The notes under the pieces were generated by a model that searched no databases, had not been told where the DNA came from, and was given only the letters and a program-made list of their open reading frames with translations. 50,879 nucleotides of DNA, taken from positions 1 through 50,879 of the forward strand of contig CAZGOR010000002.1 of NCBI GenBank assembly GCA_964527875.1, read 5' to 3'. This document shows, piece by piece, positions 664-49,936 of the stretch. Made by a program: the position numbers and the translations under genes. How positions within the stretch are numbered: the first letter of the stretch is position 1; each line of letters opens with the position of its first letter. Source of the DNA: an uncultured Bacteroides sp. (GTDB lineage Bacteria > Bacteroidota > Bacteroidia > Bacteroidales > SM23-62).

Positions 664-1053
664 TTATTTGAATTTTAATCCTTTCAATTCTGAATTTTTA
701 AGGTAATTGATCAGTCCTGTGACAAGCTTTGAGCATTCTGAAACAAGTTCATAACTGTCCTGAAATTCATTTTCATCAATATATTTCTGATCCAGTGCCC
801 TGTAAAGTTGTGATCTCAATTCTGCCAGCGATCCCCGGGAAATGCCAAGAAAATTTATAAATTCCTTATTACCACCTCTCTCAAAGCCTTCGGGGATATT
901 ATCCATTGCTGAACCGCTTGATTTTCTAACCTGCCATACCAGTGATAAATCTTTTGAAAACTTTTCTTTATTGGTTAATTCATAGATTCTTTTACAAAGT
1001 TCCCGGCATTTCTGCCAGCATTCAAGTTCTTCAAATTTATTTACTGTTGCCAT
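664..1053 (-). CDS. four-helix-bundle protein (23S rRNA intervening-sequence protein / S23-type / Avd-like family)
   Basis: 129 aa. FEELECWQKCRELCKRIYELT...VRKSSGSAMDNIPEGFERGGNKEFINFLGISRGSLAELRSQLYRA is the characteristic signature of this family. Confidence 0.9.
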   Translation of the reverse strand: MATVNKFEELECWQKCRELCKRIYELTNKEKFSKDLSLVWQVRKSSGSAMDNIPEGFERGGNKEFINFLGISRGSLAELRSQLYRALDQKYIDENEFQDSYELVSECSKLVTGLINYLKNSELKGLKFK

Positions 1054-1178
1054 GATTAAAAAAGATTAGTTTATATTTATTCTAATCATTTATGACAAAA
1101 ACTTGATCATATCGGTCAATATTTTAGTATTATTTTTACCATAATCTGTCCTAACCAACACCCAAAATCATTATTTAA

Positions 1179-1210
1179 ACACATCACCCAAACTCACACT
1201 AACTTTGAAC
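1179..1210. repeat. right arm of the perfect 32-bp inverted repeat
   Basis: ACACATCACCCAAACTCACACTAACTTTGAAC is the reverse complement of 578-609. Confidence 0.9.
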
Positions 1211-1291
1211 ATTGAACTTTAAACTCTTAACTTTGAACTATTCTAATGAAAGTACAAATTATTTTATTTTGCAAACAAAAATGATGCTGTT

Positions 1292-2785
1292 TTGAATTTA
1301 CGTTTTCTCATATTGTTTAACCTTATTCTTATCGCATTCCATCTGGATGCCCAGGATGTAGCCGACAGTGTAGATGTTCTGTGGGGAGAGAAACTTTTTC
1401 TTGAATCGAAGAATGTCATTCCTGAAATCGTCGGATATGACTCAACAGGTTTTTATTCTTTGGTTCAGGACTATCAATGGGCCATTGAGCATTACGATAC
1501 CGTACTTGATGAATCCAGGAGAGAATATCTCCACATGACCTATGGATTCTGGTCAAGAGAACTTGAAGCCCTGATTCATTTTCATGGTATGCTCTACCTC
1601 TTCACCTCTGAAGAACGATTCAGAAGCCGCATACTATATGTTCAGACCATTAACAAAGAAACACTGAAGCAGGATGGTGATGGTCATATCGTCATGGAGG
1701 TTCCGGATATGGGTGGCTGGAGGGCAGACTTCCATTTCGTTTTATCCCGTCTTGAACAAAAACTTCTTATCGTCAGCCGAACCGTTATTTACGGTCCAAA
1801 GGTACAGGAAATCCGGTTTATGGTATTTGGCAAGGATATGGAAAAAGAGTGGGAATCCGGCGACCGTATCCAGCATGATAGAAAAATATACAGTGAGGCT
1901 GAATTTGTTGTAGATGAAACAGGGAATGCTTACATGCTATGCCTTTATTTCAAACCTGTCCTTTTTCAGCATTTCAATCAAAGGAAAAACAGTTACCTGA
2001 TTGTTGCTTTTACTGATCAGGGACAATCGGTAAACAGATACTTTGCAGACTTCCCCAATAAATATATCAGAGGCATTGCCATTGAACCTACCCTTCAAAA
2101 CGAATTGGCCTGTGCCGGCTTTTACTCCCCCAGCATGAACGACTTCAGCATCGATGGACTATTTTTCTTCACAATCGATCATCAATATCATATCATAAGA
2201 AATTTGAAGTTCCATGAGCTTGAATCTTATTTTCTTGAAGAGAGTATGGAACTTAAACCAGGACAGGAATTCAAGTATCTTTACAGTTTTTATCTCGATC
2301 ATCTGGTACTAAGGCAGAATGGGAATTTTATCCTGACAGGTGAACAACTCCTGGAACAAGACTATGACAACCACAAGAATATTATCGTCATGGGAATGAA
2401 TCCAGATGGTGAAATCATGTGGGAAAGAGTCATTCAAAAAATTCAGAACCACGAAAAGGAAACTTACCCAAATTTTACATCGTATGCTCTTTTTGCACCT
2501 GCCCACTGGAACAAGGTTGAGATCCTTTTCAATGAAAATCTCAAAAACTTTAACAGAAATACTGAAAAAGACCTGGTTACCTTTAATTACAATTCAAAGG
2601 CATACCTTTCCTGTGTAGAAATAGGTGAACATGGAGAAATAGGTAAAGATATCATCTACCTGAAGAAAAGAAGAAGAATGTTAACCCCGGCGCCTCTATA
2701 CTTTTATGATATGAAAACAAATGAAATGATTATGCCGGCATTACGTTACAGAAAATTCAAATTTATGAAACTGACTTTCAATTGA
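1292..2785 (+). CDS. secreted hypothetical protein
   Basis: 497-aa ORF with a TTG start in the track and an N-terminal signal-like LILFNLILIAFHLDAQ. No catalytic motif recognised. Its end overlaps the convergent sulfatase gene by 8 nt. Confidence 0.65.
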   Translation: MNLRFLILFNLILIAFHLDAQDVADSVDVLWGEKLFLESKNVIPEIVGYDSTGFYSLVQDYQWAIEHYDTVLDESRREYLHMTYGFWSRELEALIHFHGMLYLFTSEERFRSRILYVQTINKETLKQDGDGHIVMEVPDMGGWRADFHFVLSRLEQKLLIVSRTVIYGPKVQEIRFMVFGKDMEKEWESGDRIQHDRKIYSEAEFVVDETGNAYMLCLYFKPVLFQHFNQRKNSYLIVAFTDQGQSVNRYFADFPNKYIRGIAIEPTLQNELACAGFYSPSMNDFSIDGLFFFTIDHQYHIIRNLKFHELESYFLEESMELKPGQEFKYLYSFYLDHLVLRQNGNFILTGEQLLEQDYDNHKNIIVMGMNPDGEIMWERVIQKIQNHEKETYPNFTSYALFAPAHWNKVEILFNENLKNFNRNTEKDLVTFNYNSKAYLSCVEIGEHGEIGKDIIYLKKRRRMLTPAPLYFYDMKTNEMIMPALRYRKFKFMKLTFN

Positions 2786-4454
2786 GTTCCCAACCCAGTG
2801 ATTTCAATTTCTCCATATTTTCTTCCAGTCTTCTCTTTCCCTTTTCAATAGCCATTTTTTTCTCCTCTTCATTCAATTTCTCCCATTCCCCGGGGGATAG
2901 TCCCCCCGAATCAAATCCTTTATTTGTATAATAAGGGGCTTTAAAATACACCTCTTCCTGTCCTTTCATTCTCAAATCACCCCTTTCATCCAGATAATCT
3001 TTCAATTCCTGTTGAAGTTGAAACAATAGTTCATCATATTCTTCCATACCGGCAAGGTTTTTAATCTGAAAAGGATCACCGGTCAGATTATAAAGTTCAA
3101 ACTCAGGACGTTTTGCCCATGCCAGATCATAATACCATCTCATTGCTTCCTTTTTTTGCAGTGAAAGAAGGAAATCTTTGGTTGGGCTGTTGTCAACATC
3201 ACCAAATGGATAATAATTGAAATTATATTGCGGATCGGGATGACCGGCCAGATACATGTCAGGTTTCGGATTCCAGATGATTAAAAACTGATCTTTCCTC
3301 ATAGCCCTCATGGGATAAACCTGGCCATCGGGCTGAGTCCATGCATGCCGCTCGCGAAATGTAAATATTCTGTTCCTTGAAGGATCAGCCTGCCCGGAAA
3401 TATTAGAATTCAGAATATCTAACAGGCTTTTTCCCGACATTTCTTCAGGAACCGGTAAATCTGCGATTTCCAGAAAAGTTGGAGCCAGGTCGGTAAGACT
3501 TACAAGATCATCAATTTCCCGCCCTCCTGGTATAAGCTTTTTACAGAAAATGACAAGTGGCATATGTGTTCCATACTCATACAGATTGGATTTTGCTCTT
3601 GGAAAAGGCATTCCGTTATCAGATGTTACCACGATCAAGGTGTTATCCAGTTCGTCCTCTTCACGGAGTATATCGATCATTTTTCCCAGATGATTATCAA
3701 ACCACTCTATCTCAACCAGGTAATCCAATATATCATGTCTTACCTCCGGGACATCAGGCAGAAAAGCAGGTACATCAATATCTTCCGGCTGTTTACCCAT
3801 CATCAATCCAATGTCTTTTAAATAATCCCTGTGTGGTTCAAAAGCTCCATACCAGAAACAAAATGGTTTCCCCACAGGCCTTTCTTCTAGAAACTCAGCA
3901 AAATTAGCCGCATAATCAACATTACTCATCGGATTTGAATCTCCAAACCGTTCATAAGGAATTGTCCGTACTTCCTGATACCCTTTCCCTGCAGGATTTT
4001 TCGTCCTCCCACTATTTTTCCAGTCCCCCGGGCCCCATCCCTTTCCTGTATAACCTGTAAAATAACCCGATTCTTCAAGATATTCCGTATAGGTTTTAAA
4101 TTCTGAAGGAATAATACTCCAGAGGCAGGCACCTTCCCTGAGCTCAAAACCATTCCGCCCTGTAAGAATAGAGGCACGGGATGCAGAACATGACGGAGCA
4201 GAACAATAAGCATGATTAAACCAGACTCCATTCCTGGCCAGGTAATCGATATTAGGGGTTTGAATGGCTTCACATCCTGAAAAGCTCGTATGAAGCCAGC
4301 TCATATCATCAGCAATGGCAAATAATATATTAAGCCGGTCATCTTCCACAAACTCCTCATCCTCTGAAATTTCCTGATTTTGGTGCCTTTTTCCCGTACA
4401 ACCAGCTAAAGTCAACAAAAAAATGATAATCGTGTAAAAAATAATTTGTTTCAT
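2778..4454 (-). CDS. sulfatase (formylglycine-dependent; N-sulfoglucosamine sulfohydrolase-like), lipoprotein
   Basis: Lipobox LTLAGC; metal site FAIADDMSW; maturation motif SCSASRASILTGR; SDNG further on. Confidence 0.9.
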   Translation of the reverse strand: MKQIIFYTIIIFLLTLAGCTGKRHQNQEISEDEEFVEDDRLNILFAIADDMSWLHTSFSGCEAIQTPNIDYLARNGVWFNHAYCSAPSCSASRASILTGRNGFELREGACLWSIIPSEFKTYTEYLEESGYFTGYTGKGWGPGDWKNSGRTKNPAGKGYQEVRTIPYERFGDSNPMSNVDYAANFAEFLEERPVGKPFCFWYGAFEPHRDYLKDIGLMMGKQPEDIDVPAFLPDVPEVRHDILDYLVEIEWFDNHLGKMIDILREEDELDNTLIVVTSDNGMPFPRAKSNLYEYGTHMPLVIFCKKLIPGGREIDDLVSLTDLAPTFLEIADLPVPEEMSGKSLLDILNSNISGQADPSRNRIFTFRERHAWTQPDGQVYPMRAMRKDQFLIIWNPKPDMYLAGHPDPQYNFNYYPFGDVDNSPTKDFLLSLQKKEAMRWYYDLAWAKRPEFELYNLTGDPFQIKNLAGMEEYDELLFQLQQELKDYLDERGDLRMKGQEEVYFKAPYYTNKGFDSGGLSPGEWEKLNEEEKKMAIEKGKRRLEENMEKLKSLGWELN

Positions 4455-36061: not shown

Positions 36062-36662
36062 TTAAAACCAAATACCATACTTCCGGGTCCAGCCGTAGTT
36101 AAACGGTTTCGTTTTACTCATTAAGTTCCTCCTAAATTACTTTAGTTAACTTATTCGTGAAACAGGACAATACAACCCCTTCGCTCCGCTTCCATTACAA
36201 AAGTTTCTTCACTACTACGGGTTGTTCCGACCCTGGGTCCTGCATCGGTACTCTTACTCTTGTGGTTCTTCCACTTGAGTTTCTCCCTTACCATCAGCAC
36301 GACAGGTTCCCAAGTTCCGCACATAAGCCTGTATTAAGTTCATGCCACCTTTATGCCGGATGCCGCATGAGCAGTAAACAGGTGCCCCTCATGCTTATCC
36401 CAGGTTAACGACTCCCCCCTGGTTTTGACATCGTCCATACGCTTTTGACACTTCATCAGTGGTTTACTTTCGTTCATCTCCTTAATACATACCTGATCTC
36501 TTAATCAAGACCTTTTCCATGTCGCTCACTACATCAACTCTTAATTGATGCAGCACAAGGTGGTTTGAAGCCTGTGCCTGTACACCGGCTCCGAGGGGCC
36601 GTCCCTCATCTTATGTGTAGCTCCGCTGAACAGAATGGCTGCTGTTTGCGTTCTTGGCACAC
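36062..36662 (-). mobile_element. group II intron 5' segment (GUGUG start, ribozyme domains I-III, domain IV SD + ATG + 19 codons), 3'-truncated
   Basis: Minus strand: GTGTGCCAAGAACGC... (~540 nt with no ORF, including CCCGTAGTAGTGAAGAAAC, which recalls the D3 CGUAGUAGU segment of Ll.LtrB) ...TAGGAGGAACTTA-ATG-SKTKPFNYGWTRKYGIWF-stop at 36062. A strong SD is atypical for host genes here. Confidence 0.55.
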
Positions 36663-37011
36663 TGTCGTCTGCATACCTCACTAAATAACTCTCCCCAATA
36701 AACTCTGATTTAATCGAAACATACCACTCATCCAACACTTCGTGCAGATAGATATTACTCAGCAACGGTGATATATTGCCCCCTTGTGGCATACCCTTAT
36801 CTGTCTTCCTTAATTGCCCTTCTTCCATCACTCCCGCTTTGAGCCATTTATCTATCTGCCGCTGTATCACTCCATCTCTGACCCCTTTGTCCAAAAATGC
36901 CCGCAGTGTCTCATGCTGATGACTACGCAAAACTCGCTTCCGGCTGTTGGTCAAACTTTGCCGGACAGCATTTGAACCTGTTGGGTTCCTACGAATGGTT
37001 TCAAAAAACTT
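36663..37011 (-). pseudogene. group II intron reverse transcriptase fragment (RT motifs 3-5 only)
   Basis: KFFETI ... IDKWLKAGVMEEGQLRKTDKGMPQGGNISPLLSNIYLHEVLDEW ... YLVRYADD. There is an in-frame TAG just upstream (37012-37014). The frame loses RT similarity right after YADD. The N-terminal RT0-2 and C-terminal RT6-7/X domains are missing. Confidence 0.8.
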
Positions 37012-38107: not shown

Positions 38108-38464
38108 TTACGGACTAAATGCATCCACTATATGTTCAATAAGAATCTCTTCATGTTTATACACAACAAATATCACATCAAACCTCACTTCCATGTCAAT
38201 ATCTTTTTTCATCATATATGCTTCTGTTGCCTCAATCAGGTAACGTTGTTTACCTGATTTAACTATATCTCCGGGTCGTTCATCACTCCAGAAGGATCTT
38301 GTCTTCACTTCAACGATTACTAAAAGCGGGTCTTTTTTTGAAATGATGTCGATCTCTTTCTTTTTATATCTGAAATTGGTGAATAATATCTCGTAACCAT
38401 GATCTTTCAGGTATTCAGCAGCAATTTCCTCACTTTTCTTACCTTTTTCAATATGCTTCGCCAT
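38108..38464 (-). CDS. YraN family (UPF0102) endonuclease-like protein
   Basis: 118 aa. GKKSEEIAAEYLKDHGYEIL..NFR....EIDII......LVIVEVKTR. Confidence 0.85.
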   Translation of the reverse strand: MAKHIEKGKKSEEIAAEYLKDHGYEILFTNFRYKKKEIDIISKKDPLLVIVEVKTRSFWSDERPGDIVKSGKQRYLIEATEAYMMKKDIDMEVRFDVIFVVYKHEEILIEHIVDAFSP

Positions 38465-38686
38465 GTTTTCTATTGTTTTTTCAATATGTGATTGAATAAA
38501 TTTTTTATAAAAATAGTGCTATCTTTTTTAATATTGGAATAATGAAATACTGGAATGTTGGAATATAGGGTTCGCAGCAACCGATAACCAATAACCAGGA
38601 ACTAATTCCCCCCGGTTGACAATCCAGCCTTCACTGAAGTTCCGGCTGGCAAGCGGATTCGACTGTTGCACCCTTTATTACTATAA

Positions 38687-38830
38687 CTGCCGGTTAACAA
38701 CCCTGCCTACCGGCAGGCAGGCGGCAAAACTTTCACACTTCTTTAACCTCAAACCTTCTTCTATTGTAGCAACTGCGACCATTGCGACCCTGCAACTTTG
38801 TATCCCTGCATCCTTTTCACCTCTATTCTT
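38687..38830 (+). repeat. repeat unit A (left copy), hairpin-rich word repeat
   Basis: CTGCCGGTTAACAACCCTGCCTACCGGCAGGCAGGCGG...GCAACTGCGACCATTGCGACCCTGCAACTTTGTATCCCTGCATC matches the reverse complement of 49605-49762 over most positions. Confidence 0.85.
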
Positions 38831-39674
38831 GTCTGGATAGAAATGCGGCGCGCGCAACGAGATAATTCTCATCCACGTTTCCGCATGCCCCCCTGCGATC
38901 CCGGACGGTCGGATTTCCCGAGTACCGGTTCTGACAATAACGATTATAAAAGTAATTACACCCAAAGTCTTTCCCTGGAAACTGAAGCTTAAATGCTGGC
39001 TCATATACACCCCAAATCTCCAAGGTTTACTTAAGGTTTAGACTTATGACCTATGCTCAATCGGTTCTGTGCCCGATGGCATTGTCGGTGCCCGCTATTT
39101 GCCCAGAGCCCCTTTGCCTGCATCAGGTGTTACGTTACTGCAGTATATCAGTGGACATTACTCCTCCTTCATCGCTCATACGAATTCATGCGCCAGACCA
39201 ATATCCTCTTGTCTTCTCCAGATTCGCCGTCGTCGACAAGTCTTTGCAGGTTGCCGCCAGCCCCTGCTGGAAATCGGCCCTTCCCGACTTTATTCCCTGC
39301 AATCTCTGTATAAGTGTCCAGACCCCCACCCCGCCCTGTACCTCCGGTGCTCTCGCCCATTTCTTCCCGGAAGTCTCCGGCCTCACCTCACTAAAAACAG
39401 GTTCGGCTCACAAAACAATCCCTGATATGCAACTTTAACAGGGGGCTCCTTTCGGGGGTGCAGTCATTCTCTAATGTTTGGACTCTCATACTTGCTTGGC
39501 CTCCATGTTGTACCCACCATGGTAACTCTGTTTTTATCCAGGCGGACAGGCCGTTTACACCACCCTATCCTGGTTGGTTATCTGCCCCAGCCTGTGGTAT
39601 CGCTACATGCCCGACATGGGCAATTGGCATGACTGGACTTTCACCAGTTAGATTGCAGCTTTGTCGGCTGCTCC
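38831..39674 (-). mobile_element. 844-bp ORF-less, GC-rich insertion with a group II intron-like architecture (putative IEP-less intron relic)
   Basis: Absent from the otherwise collinear repeat copy at 49503-49762. On the minus strand there are ~516 nt of non-coding sequence (..CUGGUGAAAGUCCAG..), then GAAGGAGGAGUA-AUG plus 7 codons (39135-39158). A D5-like 35-nt hairpin lies at 38897-38931, followed by a 3-nt linker. A D6-like helix at 38835-38893 carries a bulged A (38838) 7 nt from an ...AC end. Confidence 0.55.
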
Positions 39675-39775
39675 CCTTAGCCTCAGCCTTGCCCTGTGAA
39701 ATGCAAAGCAATTTTGCAAGCAAAATTATTTCACAGGGCGAGCCTTAGCCTTCTTATATTGCAACCATTGCGACA
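39675..39775 (+). repeat. repeat unit B (left copy) containing a long hairpin
   Basis: CCTTAGCCTCAGCCTTGCCCTGTGAAATGCAAAGCAATTTTGCAAGCAAAATTATTTCACAGGGCGAGCCTTAGCCTTCTTATATTGCAACCATTGCGAC is nearly identical to the reverse complement of 49503-49604. Confidence 0.9.
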
Positions 39776-49502: not shown

Positions 49503-49762
49503 GGTTGCAATGGTCGCAATATAAGAAGGCTAAGACTCGCCCTGTGAAATAATTTTGCTTGCAAAATTGCTTTGCATTTCACAGGGCAAGGCTAAGGCTA
49601 AGGAAAAATAGGGGTTAAAATGATGCAGGGCTACAAAGTTGAAGGGTCACAATGGTCACAGTTGTTACAATAGAAGAAGGCTTAGGCAATAGGAGTGTGA
49701 AAGTGTAAAAGTGTGAAAGTTCTACCGCCTGCCTGCCAGTAGGCATGGTTTTTAACCGGCAG
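49503..49762 (-). repeat. uninterrupted B+A repeat unit (right copy, inverted relative to the left copy)
   Basis: The reverse complement reads ...CTGCCGGTTAAAAACCATGCCTACTGGCAGGCAGGCGG...CCCTGCATCATTTTAACCCCTATTTTTCC|TTAGCCTTAGCCTTGCCCTGTGAAATGCAAAGCAATTTTGCAAGCAAAATTATTTCACAGGGCGAG.... This is A directly joined to B. Confidence 0.9.
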
Positions 49763-49936
49763 CTGTATTCACCAAGGGAGGCAATAGAAAAGTCCGGTTC
49801 CATAGTTATCAGGATAACCGGACACATTTACACCTGATCACGACATATCCCTGAATAAAAAGTTGATTTGTTAAAACCTCATTCAGAGTAATATAGCTTC
49901 TTTTAAAGCAAATTCTTTAAAAAAATCCAAAATTTA

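Follow-up and report, generated by a model that had tools for sequence, protein, structure and literature searches.

Two inverted copies of a repeat of about 275 bp lie in the window, by which is meant the whole 50,879-nt stretch of DNA that was analysed here. The right copy (49504-49778) is uninterrupted, and a repeat search together with a reading of the junctions showed that the left copy is interrupted by a block of 844 bp at 38831-39674. The inverted arms are 96% complementary on one side of the junction (39675-39774 and 49504-49603) and 88% complementary on the other (38751-38830 and 49604-49683); in the right copy they adjoin each other, and in the left one 844 bp separate them. Read on the minus strand, with a slash at each junction, the filled site is ...GGCUAAGG/GGAGCAGCC...CCAGAC/AAGAAUAG (in a longer reading, ...GGCUGAGGCUAAGG/GGAGCAGCC...CUAUCCAGAC/AAGAAUAGAGG), and the empty site is ...GGCTAAGG/AAAAATAG (in a longer reading, ...GGCTAAGGCTAAGG/AAAAATAGGGG). 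The comparison of the filled and empty sites places the insertion at exactly 38831-39674 and revealed no target-site duplication, nor did the comparison of the junctions reveal terminal inverted repeats on the block. The window also contains the T9SS genes PorW/SprE and PorX, by which it is placed in the Bacteroidota.

An earlier interpretation made from the letters of the window (the sequence-only reading) had described an insertion of this length with a surviving empty site, richer in G+C than its surroundings and carrying only short, overlapping ORFs. The repeat arms and the junctions agree with that description, as do the G+C content (51.4% in the block versus 39.1% in the window) and the ORFs, which are all of 130 aa or less and none of which has a Pfam match. 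The same reading had taken the block for the RNA of a group II-type intron that lies on the minus strand and lacks an intron-encoded protein (IEP), with D5- and D6-like domains at its 3' end and an unpaired A at 38838, 7 nt before the ...GAC terminus. This part was likewise borne out, in that the proposed hairpin and helix coincide with D5 and D6 of the family consensus presented below, and the unpaired A with that of the consensus D6. The features of the locus are collected in Table 1.

Table 1. Features of the interrupted repeat, of its uninterrupted paralogue and of the 844-nt element, in window coordinates
Feature	Position	Strand	Basis
Left part of the interrupted 275-bp repeat (target)	38671-38830	+	Repeat search, junction reading
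Right part of the interrupted repeat, with a 49-nt hairpin at 39691-39739	39675-39774	+	Repeat search
Uninterrupted paralogous repeat; empty site between 49603 and 49604	49504-49778	-	Repeat search
Whole element: probable ORF-less group II-type intron RNA, 844 nt, 5'-GGAGCAGCC...CUAUCCAGAC-3'	38831-39674	-	Filled/empty site; full-length homology to about 90 copies
Domain 1 (A4 columns 8-426)	39284-39667	-	Consensus structure
RF02003 (group-II-D1D4-4) sub-threshold match inside Domain 1	39472-39650	-	Rfam search
EBS2 loop GAAAGGAGCCCC	39442-39453	-	Family-wide complementarity to flank -7 to -18
EBS1 UUUUAGU, loop of hairpin 39380-39407	39390-39396	-	A4 columns 301-307 versus own flanks
EBS3 position, G in GGGGUG-G-GGGUC internal loop	39326	-	Column 376 versus first nt of 3' flank
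Domain 2	39192-39283	-	Consensus structure
Domain 3, with 'SD-like' hairpin at 39150-39167	39104-39190	-	Consensus structure
Domain 4 equivalent: structured, no ORF	38933-39103	-	Alignment, Pfam search
Domain 5 equivalent: GA-A-CCGG(U)AC-UCGG-GAAAU-CCGA-CC-GUCCGG-GA-UC	38897-38931	-	Alignment, consensus structure
Domain 6 equivalent, invariant unpaired A at 38838, 7 nt from 3' end	38835-38892	-	Consensus structure
IBS1 GCUAAGG, last 7 nt of 5' flank	39675-39681	-	EBS1 pairing
Partial IBS2 GGCU in 5' flank; can pair with AGCC in the EBS2 loop	39685-39688	-	EBS2 pairing
IBS3 A, first nt of 3' flank; mismatch with EBS3 G of the window copy	38830	-	EBS3 comparison

Relatives of the element

A blastn search of plasmids revealed a region of a Mycobacterium riyadhense plasmid that is collinear with the element along its entire length, as well as a core of about 60 nt, 85-90% identical, in plasmids of Niallia and Cupriavidus. 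When genomes were scanned with the D5 core motif ACTNGGGAAATCCNANCGTCCNGGATCG, the motif was found at at least 119 loci. The matches listed come from Bacillota, Actinomycetota, Planctomycetota, Acidobacteriota, Desulfobacterota, Pseudomonadota (Beta- and Gammaproteobacteria) and GN15, which, among those matches, puts the family in about seven phyla besides that of the window; they include genomes with many copies, such as Gracilibacillus massiliensis, Pseudalkalibacillus sp. A8 and Solirubrobacteraceae MAGs. An nhmmer search with the window element and 40 nt of flank on each side as the query gave 136 matches, some 90 of them full length and with a homology that begins at the element's first base. 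Members of the family are 805-921 nt long (median 858 nt), begin with GGAGCAGCCG(A/U)CAAGGCUG... and end with ...UUCUAYCC(N)GAC; the closest relative among those found is 71.5% identical to the window element. Tandem and multi-copy occurrences were observed, and the flanks differ at 33 distinct sites.

Neither a reverse transcriptase (RT) nor an IEP is present inside any of the approximately 66 unique full-length copies checked, about 100 copies having been examined in all. Two long copies (L035 and L114) were considered as IEP-bearing relatives and rejected, since their extra length is due to IS30/IS630-type transposases, not RTs, inserted in domain 1. RT-like ORFs were found at 44 of 122 loci; with respect to the distinct sites, such an ORF lies directly upstream at 5 of the 33, and the other 28 have no adjacent RT. 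The sequence-only reading had held the block to be an IEP-deleted derivative, with IEP-encoding relatives to be looked for; none turned up among the copies examined, and the region equivalent to D4, from which the ORF would have been lost, is a conserved, structured domain free of ORFs.

The search was also extended to other collections. A phage collection gave no match to the element, and none was found in viral contigs scanned with a D2/D3 motif. Sampling via plasmids, which is independent of D5, returned one already known copy and one 5' fragment only.

Fold, core and guide sequences

The consensus structure was derived with RNAalifold from a MAFFT alignment of 29 diverse family members (alignment A4). 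It comprises 181 pairs, 122 of which show compensatory double changes. Standard pairs account for 95.7% of the cells, versus 78.7% after shuffling (none of 500 shuffles reached the observed value), and for 33-45% when the 3' partners are slid by 1-3 columns; the covariation score is 0.531, versus 0.205 for shuffled alignments and at most 0.104 for slid partners. Folding single sequences told nothing of use, with z = -0.9 for the 3' end and z = -1.65 for the element as a whole. The helices fall into six domains, and the D1-D6 fold with EBS/IBS pairing to the flanks, which the sequence-only reading had put forward as a check, was recovered family-wide, complete with EBS1, EBS2 and EBS3.

The helices of D6 covary, and the unpaired A is invariant at column 1102 (38838 in the window); the 3' end is ...CC(C/A)GAC in all members and so has the terminal AY of group II introns. 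In D3, a hairpin at columns 548-565 (consensus GAUGAAGGAGGGGUAAUGCCCUCUGA) covaries and is present in all members. Its 5' arm and loop are the string GAAGGAGGAGUAAUG (39167-39150 region) that had been read as an SD with an AUG and 7 codons, the remnant of an IEP ORF in D4; it is part of a conserved hairpin and not such a remnant.

RF00029 (group II D5/D6), proposed earlier as a check, has no match in the 901-nt window region even at E<=10, and none at E<=0.01 in 8 family loci. The group-II-D1D4 models, proposed along with it, gave a sub-threshold match in the window: RF02003 covers its D1 segment (Table 1) end to end with 36.0 bits (E=2.8e-6), which is below the gathering score of 49, whereas three relatives (L091, L053 and L104) exceed that score with 51.9, 50.1 and 49.9 bits. 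The RF02003 model spans only about 140 nt of D1, and the host intron upstream in L091 likewise passes its gathering score. The sole gathering-level match in the window is to RF01999, at 36491-36607, and concerns another intron type. Weak matches to Twister-sister and lincRNA models were dismissed as chance.

A 5' GUGYG and an AGC/CGC triad in D5 are regarded as catalytically important in group II introns. The family has GGAGC (with the variants GGUAGC, GGAAC and GGAGU) in place of GUGYG, at a 5' boundary that was set by the insertion junctions and by the point where the IBS1 pairing ends. Its D5 reads G-A-[A]-CCGGAC-UCGG-GAAAU-CCGA-[CC]-GUCCGG-[GA]-U-C; it is 34 nt long (35 nt in the window) and has the usual 2-nt 3' bulge (CC), but its triad is AAC, with a 1x2 internal loop in place of the canonical G.U pair, and its upper helix of 4 bp is closed by a 5-nt loop, GAAAU. 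In the copies collected with the motif, AAC is almost invariant and constitutes the family norm, although the family was gathered with the D5 motif and the invariance of 28 motif positions is therefore partly by construction. The 8 nt that adjoin the motif and lie outside it, AGAACCGG, are invariant in 124 of 126 matches, and a swap from C-G to G-C is seen at one N-pair of the motif. The AAC triad had been taken to mean that the window copy might be inactive, a deduction that a family-wide triad does not support. With GUGYG and the AGC/CGC triad absent, the family is only putatively competent to splice. In one 3' fragment that is related to the family (L030, 3820-3936, on the minus strand), D5 is of the AGC...GUU type and has an AC bulge, and this observation suggests that the family descends from a canonical core. 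The altered catalytic hairpin and 5' end explain why standard intron searches miss the family.

The choice of target was studied by comparing each copy's own flanks with every column of the alignment, with permuted flanks as controls. Columns 301-307, which form the loop of a D1 hairpin (EBS1), find their partners in the final 7 nt of the 5' flank; pairing there reaches 83-97% at the individual positions (90-92% overall), versus at most 57% with permuted flanks, and drops to chance beyond 7 nt. Matching guide and flank sequences include GACGUC, CUAGAU, GAUAGG, CGCAACAC, UGCCAUGC, GGCGAAA, CCUAACG and GAGUUAG. Since the IBS1 pairing stops exactly at the GGAGC boundary, GGAGC is the native 5' end, and the earlier suggestion that about 17 nt had possibly been lost there is not supported; indeed, some 90 homologues start at the same base with GGAGCAGCCG, and the EBS1-paired flank abuts it. 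A GTGTG upstream of the Mycobacterium copy was considered as the missing 5' end and rejected, because it belongs to the D5 of a host intron, of which it forms the 5' half.

The loop that follows GCAGCCCCGAAA corresponds to EBS2 and pairs over about 6 nt with the flank at about -8 to -15; for the best 6-mer, the mean complementarity is 5.24/6, versus 4.29 +/- 0.11 for permuted flanks (0/300 reach the observed value). EBS3 is the single nucleotide at column 376, in the GGGGUA-N-GGGUC internal loop. In 93% of copies it is the complement of the nucleotide that opens the 3' flank (as fractions, permuted flanks average 0.64 and reach 0.79 at most). This complementarity of loop and flank, copy by copy, indicates that the element picks its sites by RNA-DNA base pairing. 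The combination of EBS1, EBS2 and EBS3 is the scheme of IIB-type group II introns, whereas those of the IIC type have only a short EBS1 and an EBS3, lack an EBS2, and insert just after terminator hairpins or attC sites. As predicted from these complementarities, the targeting of the family is group II reverse splicing in the IIB style, not IIC. The sequence-only reading had been reminded of intron classes that home next to terminator-like stem-loops, a IIC-like habit; besides having a IIB-style set of guides, the copies show no enrichment of upstream hairpins, as structure in the 45 nt upstream does not exceed that of controls (p=0.81). Empty sites, once reconstructed, have modestly more structure than random windows do, and the junction lies inside an enclosed loop in 17 of 29 cases versus 8.7 expected (p 0.02-0.05); this structured-target or hairpin-loop signal is a lead only.

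Several lineages sit in the terminal loop of the canonical D5 of another group II intron, where the flanks read GAGCCGUGUGCGGGAG/.../AACCGCAUGCACGGUUC and similar. Copies in such D5 loops, just downstream of a maturase ORF, occur in Solirubrobacterales, Mycobacterium and Bacillaceae; the EBS2 and EBS1 of such lineages have complementarity to the 5' strand of the host D5. This nesting explains the GTGTG upstream of the Mycobacterium copy. Another lineage, which forms tandem arrays, is inserted after codon 9 of the ORF MKESYVEDL/ANHGGPESCVG, the start of which seems to resemble IEP N-termini. Elements of the family thus appear to exploit resident IEP-encoding introns. In the window, relics of two other group II introns, with an RT fragment, lie 2-3 kb from the element.

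The copy in the window

In the window copy, EBS1 (UUUUAGU) and IBS1 (GCUAAGG) form 4 Watson-Crick and 3 G.U pairs, EBS2 matches at 4/6 positions, and the G of EBS3 stands opposite A. This poor match between guide and target makes the copy look like an ectopic insertion. Of the columns with a conservation of at least 93% among the other members, the copy deviates at 13, mostly from G to A, versus 5-6 for a typical member. An extra U at 38924, in the lower helix of D5, is private to the locus, and the D3 hairpin of columns 568-588 is missing. Consensus pairs are broken or missing in 22/181 cases, versus a family median of 6; half of the 22 are lost through the D3 deletion, and the other 11 are consensus pairs left unpaired elsewhere.

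A metagenome scan for the private D5 variant returned only two contigs, both from the same locus, at 99.75% identity and with the insertion present; in that scan, one copy of the element was seen for the window's organism. Among near-identical metagenome contigs, SNPs number 6 in the 844 nt of the element versus 4 in the 3143 nt outside it (Fisher p=0.008), and one of them falls at a position that is invariant in 28 relatives. The presence of the insertion in all contigs, together with this excess of polymorphism, suggests that the copy is fixed in the population and under relaxed constraint. To judge from its sequence, the window copy is probably inactive; an ectopic insertion that is now decaying, within an intergenic repeat on a Bacteroidota chromosome, is its probable nature.

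Explanations and known systems

The block very probably represents a group II-type intron that is obligately ORF-less, a ribozyme retroelement, on the minus strand. Its RNA folds into six domains, EBS2, EBS1 and EBS3 in domain 1 guide the choice of the insertion site as in group II reverse splicing, and the insertion left no target duplication. As no reverse transcriptase is encoded, copying into DNA would have to rely on an RT supplied in trans, for which the protein-encoding introns that host several lineages, and the nearby intron relics in the window, are possible sources. The window copy probably landed at a poorly matched repeat site and is now decaying. A wider proposal, made more tentatively, is that the family, with the window copy as a stray member, constitutes an unrecognised lineage spread over many phyla, protein-less, with a rewired core (GGAGC at the 5' end; AAC and an asymmetric loop in D5), invisible to D5-based surveys, partly hyperparasitic on IEP-encoding introns (in their D5 loops and, apparently, in the starts of their IEP genes), and borrowing its RT.

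Another mechanism could be that of an autonomous ribozyme of the HYER kind, in which cutting and/or integration, guided by the EBS, would take place by hydrolysis and free of protein in single-stranded or bubbled DNA. The family is ORF-less and multi-copy, 28 of 33 sites lack an adjacent RT, and the empty sites are somewhat structured, with the excess of junctions in enclosed loops noted above (17 versus 8.7 of 29); moreover, the concept has been described for IEP-less group IIC introns (PMC12990946). However, HYERs as described there are IIC introns with only a 6-nt TRS, whereas the family has EBS1, EBS2 and EBS3 and another D5 and 5' end; the hairpin-loop signal is weak (p 0.02-0.05); and a DNA copy would still require reverse transcription. 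This mechanism is therefore considered unlikely. It overlaps in part with that of a retroelement and differs from it only on the need for an RT helper. PMC12990946, in a summary of Liu et al. (Science 2024), presents HYERs as IEP-less group IIC introns, multi-copy, that cut DNA hydrolytically, and gives 637 nt as the length of HYER1. By this description, the family resembles HYERs, conceptually its nearest counterpart, in being protein-less, multi-copy per genome and RNA-guided in its choice of target, and is set apart from them by its length of 805-921 nt, by a 7-nt EBS1 with EBS2 and EBS3 versus the 6-nt TRS of IIC, and by its non-canonical 5' end and D5. HYERs being compared by description only, it is possible that the family is identical with one of the described HYER types.

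The explanation given in the sequence-only reading, a full-length intron of local origin that has lost its IEP and about 17 nt of its 5' end, could draw on the intron relics with an RT fragment 2 kb away and on the string GAAGGAGG-N-AUG, which is like an IEP start. It is contradicted by the homologues and by the IBS1 boundary: relatives in seven other phyla share the 5' end and the ORF-less D4 as well as the 'SD' hairpin, the IBS1 pairing stops exactly at GGAGC, and the neighbouring relics are of another type (RF01999). It is thus highly improbable, and of the sequence-only reading as a whole, the ORF-less group II-type intron and the empty site were retained, while the truncation, the ORF relic, the IIC-like homing and the idea that a divergent copy must be a dead one were abandoned. 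A domesticated gene for a structured non-coding RNA, or a leader of the downstream minus-strand operon, would accord with the strong conservation of the fold and with the position upstream of minus-strand genes at 38108-38464 and beyond; an equally slight probability is given to it, in view of the 33 distinct sites with different flanks, the multi-copy and tandem occurrences, the covariation of guide and flank, the paralogous repeat without the element, and the raised polymorphism and broken conserved pairs of the window copy. The least credible explanation is a non-autonomous DNA transposon (MITE) moved by a transposase. Such an element would also be short, non-coding, multi-copy and intergenic, but the anatomy of the junctions contradicts it, with neither terminal inverted repeats nor a target-site duplication and with asymmetric ends, and targeting tracks the complementarity of an internal RNA loop.

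By its target-pairing logic and its architecture, as they emerge from the alignments, the family of the retroelement works like a group II intron, but one that departs from the canonical form in its 5' end, in its D5 and in its want of an IEP. With the canonical, IEP-encoding IIB-like introns it shares the six-domain fold and the 3' ...AC end, the unpaired A of D6 that stands 7 nt before this end, a D5 of 34 nt with a 3' bulge of 2 nt, the EBS1/IBS1, EBS2/IBS2 and EBS3/IBS3 pairings, insertion without target-site duplication, and a D1 that matches Rfam group-II-D1D4-4, in the window below the gathering score. It differs from them in that no member has an IEP, in that its 5' end is GGAGC versus GUGYG, in having AAC with a 1x2 internal loop in D5 versus AGC with a G.U pair, in an upper D5 helix of 4 bp with GAAAU versus 5 bp with a GNRA loop, and in being undetected by RF00029.

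Bacterial introns without an ORF that are served in trans by the IEP of a related intron have been reviewed (PMC4424553), and those of Trichodesmium dnaN are an example cited in PMC12584367. These too are ribozymes without an ORF, and a dependence on a resident RT or maturase is likely in the family as well. However, they are few and genome-specific, have canonical cores and derive from IEP-bearing introns, whereas the family of the window spans phyla, with all of its members ORF-less and its core altered. Nested introns, or twintrons, are known from Methanosarcina, where introns home into other introns (PMC4424553). Several lineages of the family likewise lie inside group II introns, either within the loop of D5 or close to an ORF start; in contrast, their inner element is ORF-less, one set of lineages targets the conserved 5' strand and loop of the host D5, and the window copy itself is not nested.

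Zimmerly and Semper (PMC4424553) regarded ORF-less bacterial introns as rare, with more of them hidden only if domain V differs, and surveys of bacterial group II introns rely on the RT gene or on the canonical Rfam D5/D6 model (bioRxiv 10.1101/2021.09.28.462093). The window's family is a hidden, ORF-less case with a differing domain V such as PMC4424553 had foreseen, its covarying group II architecture extending over hundreds of nucleotides. If its members are active, they would show which parts of the group II and spliceosomal-type catalytic core can vary, they would provide further compact RNA-guided DNA-targeting ribozymes besides the IIC-derived HYERs, and they would document introns that are parasitic on other introns. 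As for the block in the window, the annotation that fits is that of a probable decaying retroelement insertion, neither a gene nor a regulator.

Family copies within host introns

At six loci in other genomes, the copy of the family of ORF-less introns is nested in a host group II intron that has a canonical D5, within the terminal loop of that D5 (see table). In each case, the maturase ORF of the host immediately precedes the copy, and the 5' strand of the host D5 is complementary to EBS2 plus EBS1 of the copy. At L091, the RT of the host intron is itself split by a serine-recombinase gene (1033-3078).

The Bacillaceae loci L038, L026, and L015, together with related ones, form a subfamily with common flanks consisting of a hairpin and TTTAAGCGTAGACAGTTAGGT/.../GGCGGGCCGAAAGCCAAATGGTTGAAGGG (slashes mark the copy's boundaries), in which the flank is matched by EBS2 and unmatched by the aligned EBS1. 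At L026, such a copy precedes an RT ORF by about 500 nt, and a second family copy, in a D5 loop, comes after this ORF, so a single host intron may carry two nested family elements.

Group II intron features in the window and family copies in host D5 loops
Feature	Locus	Position	Strand	Evidence
RT ORF fragment	window	36541-36954	minus	TIGR04416, 91 bits
Inner intron start, GTGTGCC	window	~36662	minus	sequence at break of RT ORF fragment
Inner intron RF01999 match	window	36491-36607	minus	111.5 bits
Family copy in host D5 loop	L091	4629-5503
Family copy in host D5 loop	L088	2211-3131
Family copy in host D5 loop	L104	5821-6739
Family copy in host D5 loop	L099	3840-4748
Family copy in host D5 loop	L122	3827-4679
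Family copy in host D5 loop	L001	4001-4988

Other arrangements of family copies

One family lineage (L044 1923-2795; L019, L020, and L070) splits an ORF start, MKESYVEDL/ANHGGPESCVG, which resembles IEP N-termini and is possibly the IEP N-terminus of a host intron; in one Solirubrobacteraceae MAG, this lineage forms tandem arrays with a 1006-nt period. L051 (1293-2943) holds a head-to-tail pair with zero spacer (...CTACCCGAC/GGAGCAGCC...). Domain 1 is interrupted by IS30- and IS630-type transposase genes in the copies at L035 3689-6278 and L114 1424-2542.

Relatives and relics

A 3' fragment of a relative (L030 3820-3936, minus strand) has a D5 with an AGC triad and an AC bulge, AGCCGGAC-UGGG-GAGAA-CCCA-AC-GUCCGGUU, then a D6 and the family-like terminus ...CUACCCGAC. 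It gave zero Rfam matches at E<=0.01 and may be a more canonical cousin.

The window holds two further group II introns as nested relics, one within the other (36070-36954, minus strand). The RT ORF fragment ends at YADD, exactly where the second intron starts; the latter stops past AGGAGG-N6-ATG and about 20 codons (~36140-36070). D5/D6 for these relics are absent across the whole window.

The 275-bp inverted repeats

Inverted 275-bp repeats (38671-39774 and 49504-49778), the only two copies within the window, bracket a 9.7-kb segment containing metG and nucleotide-sugar/polysaccharide genes, and both carry a 49-nt perfect hairpin (GCCCTGTGAAAT...ATTTCACAGGGC).
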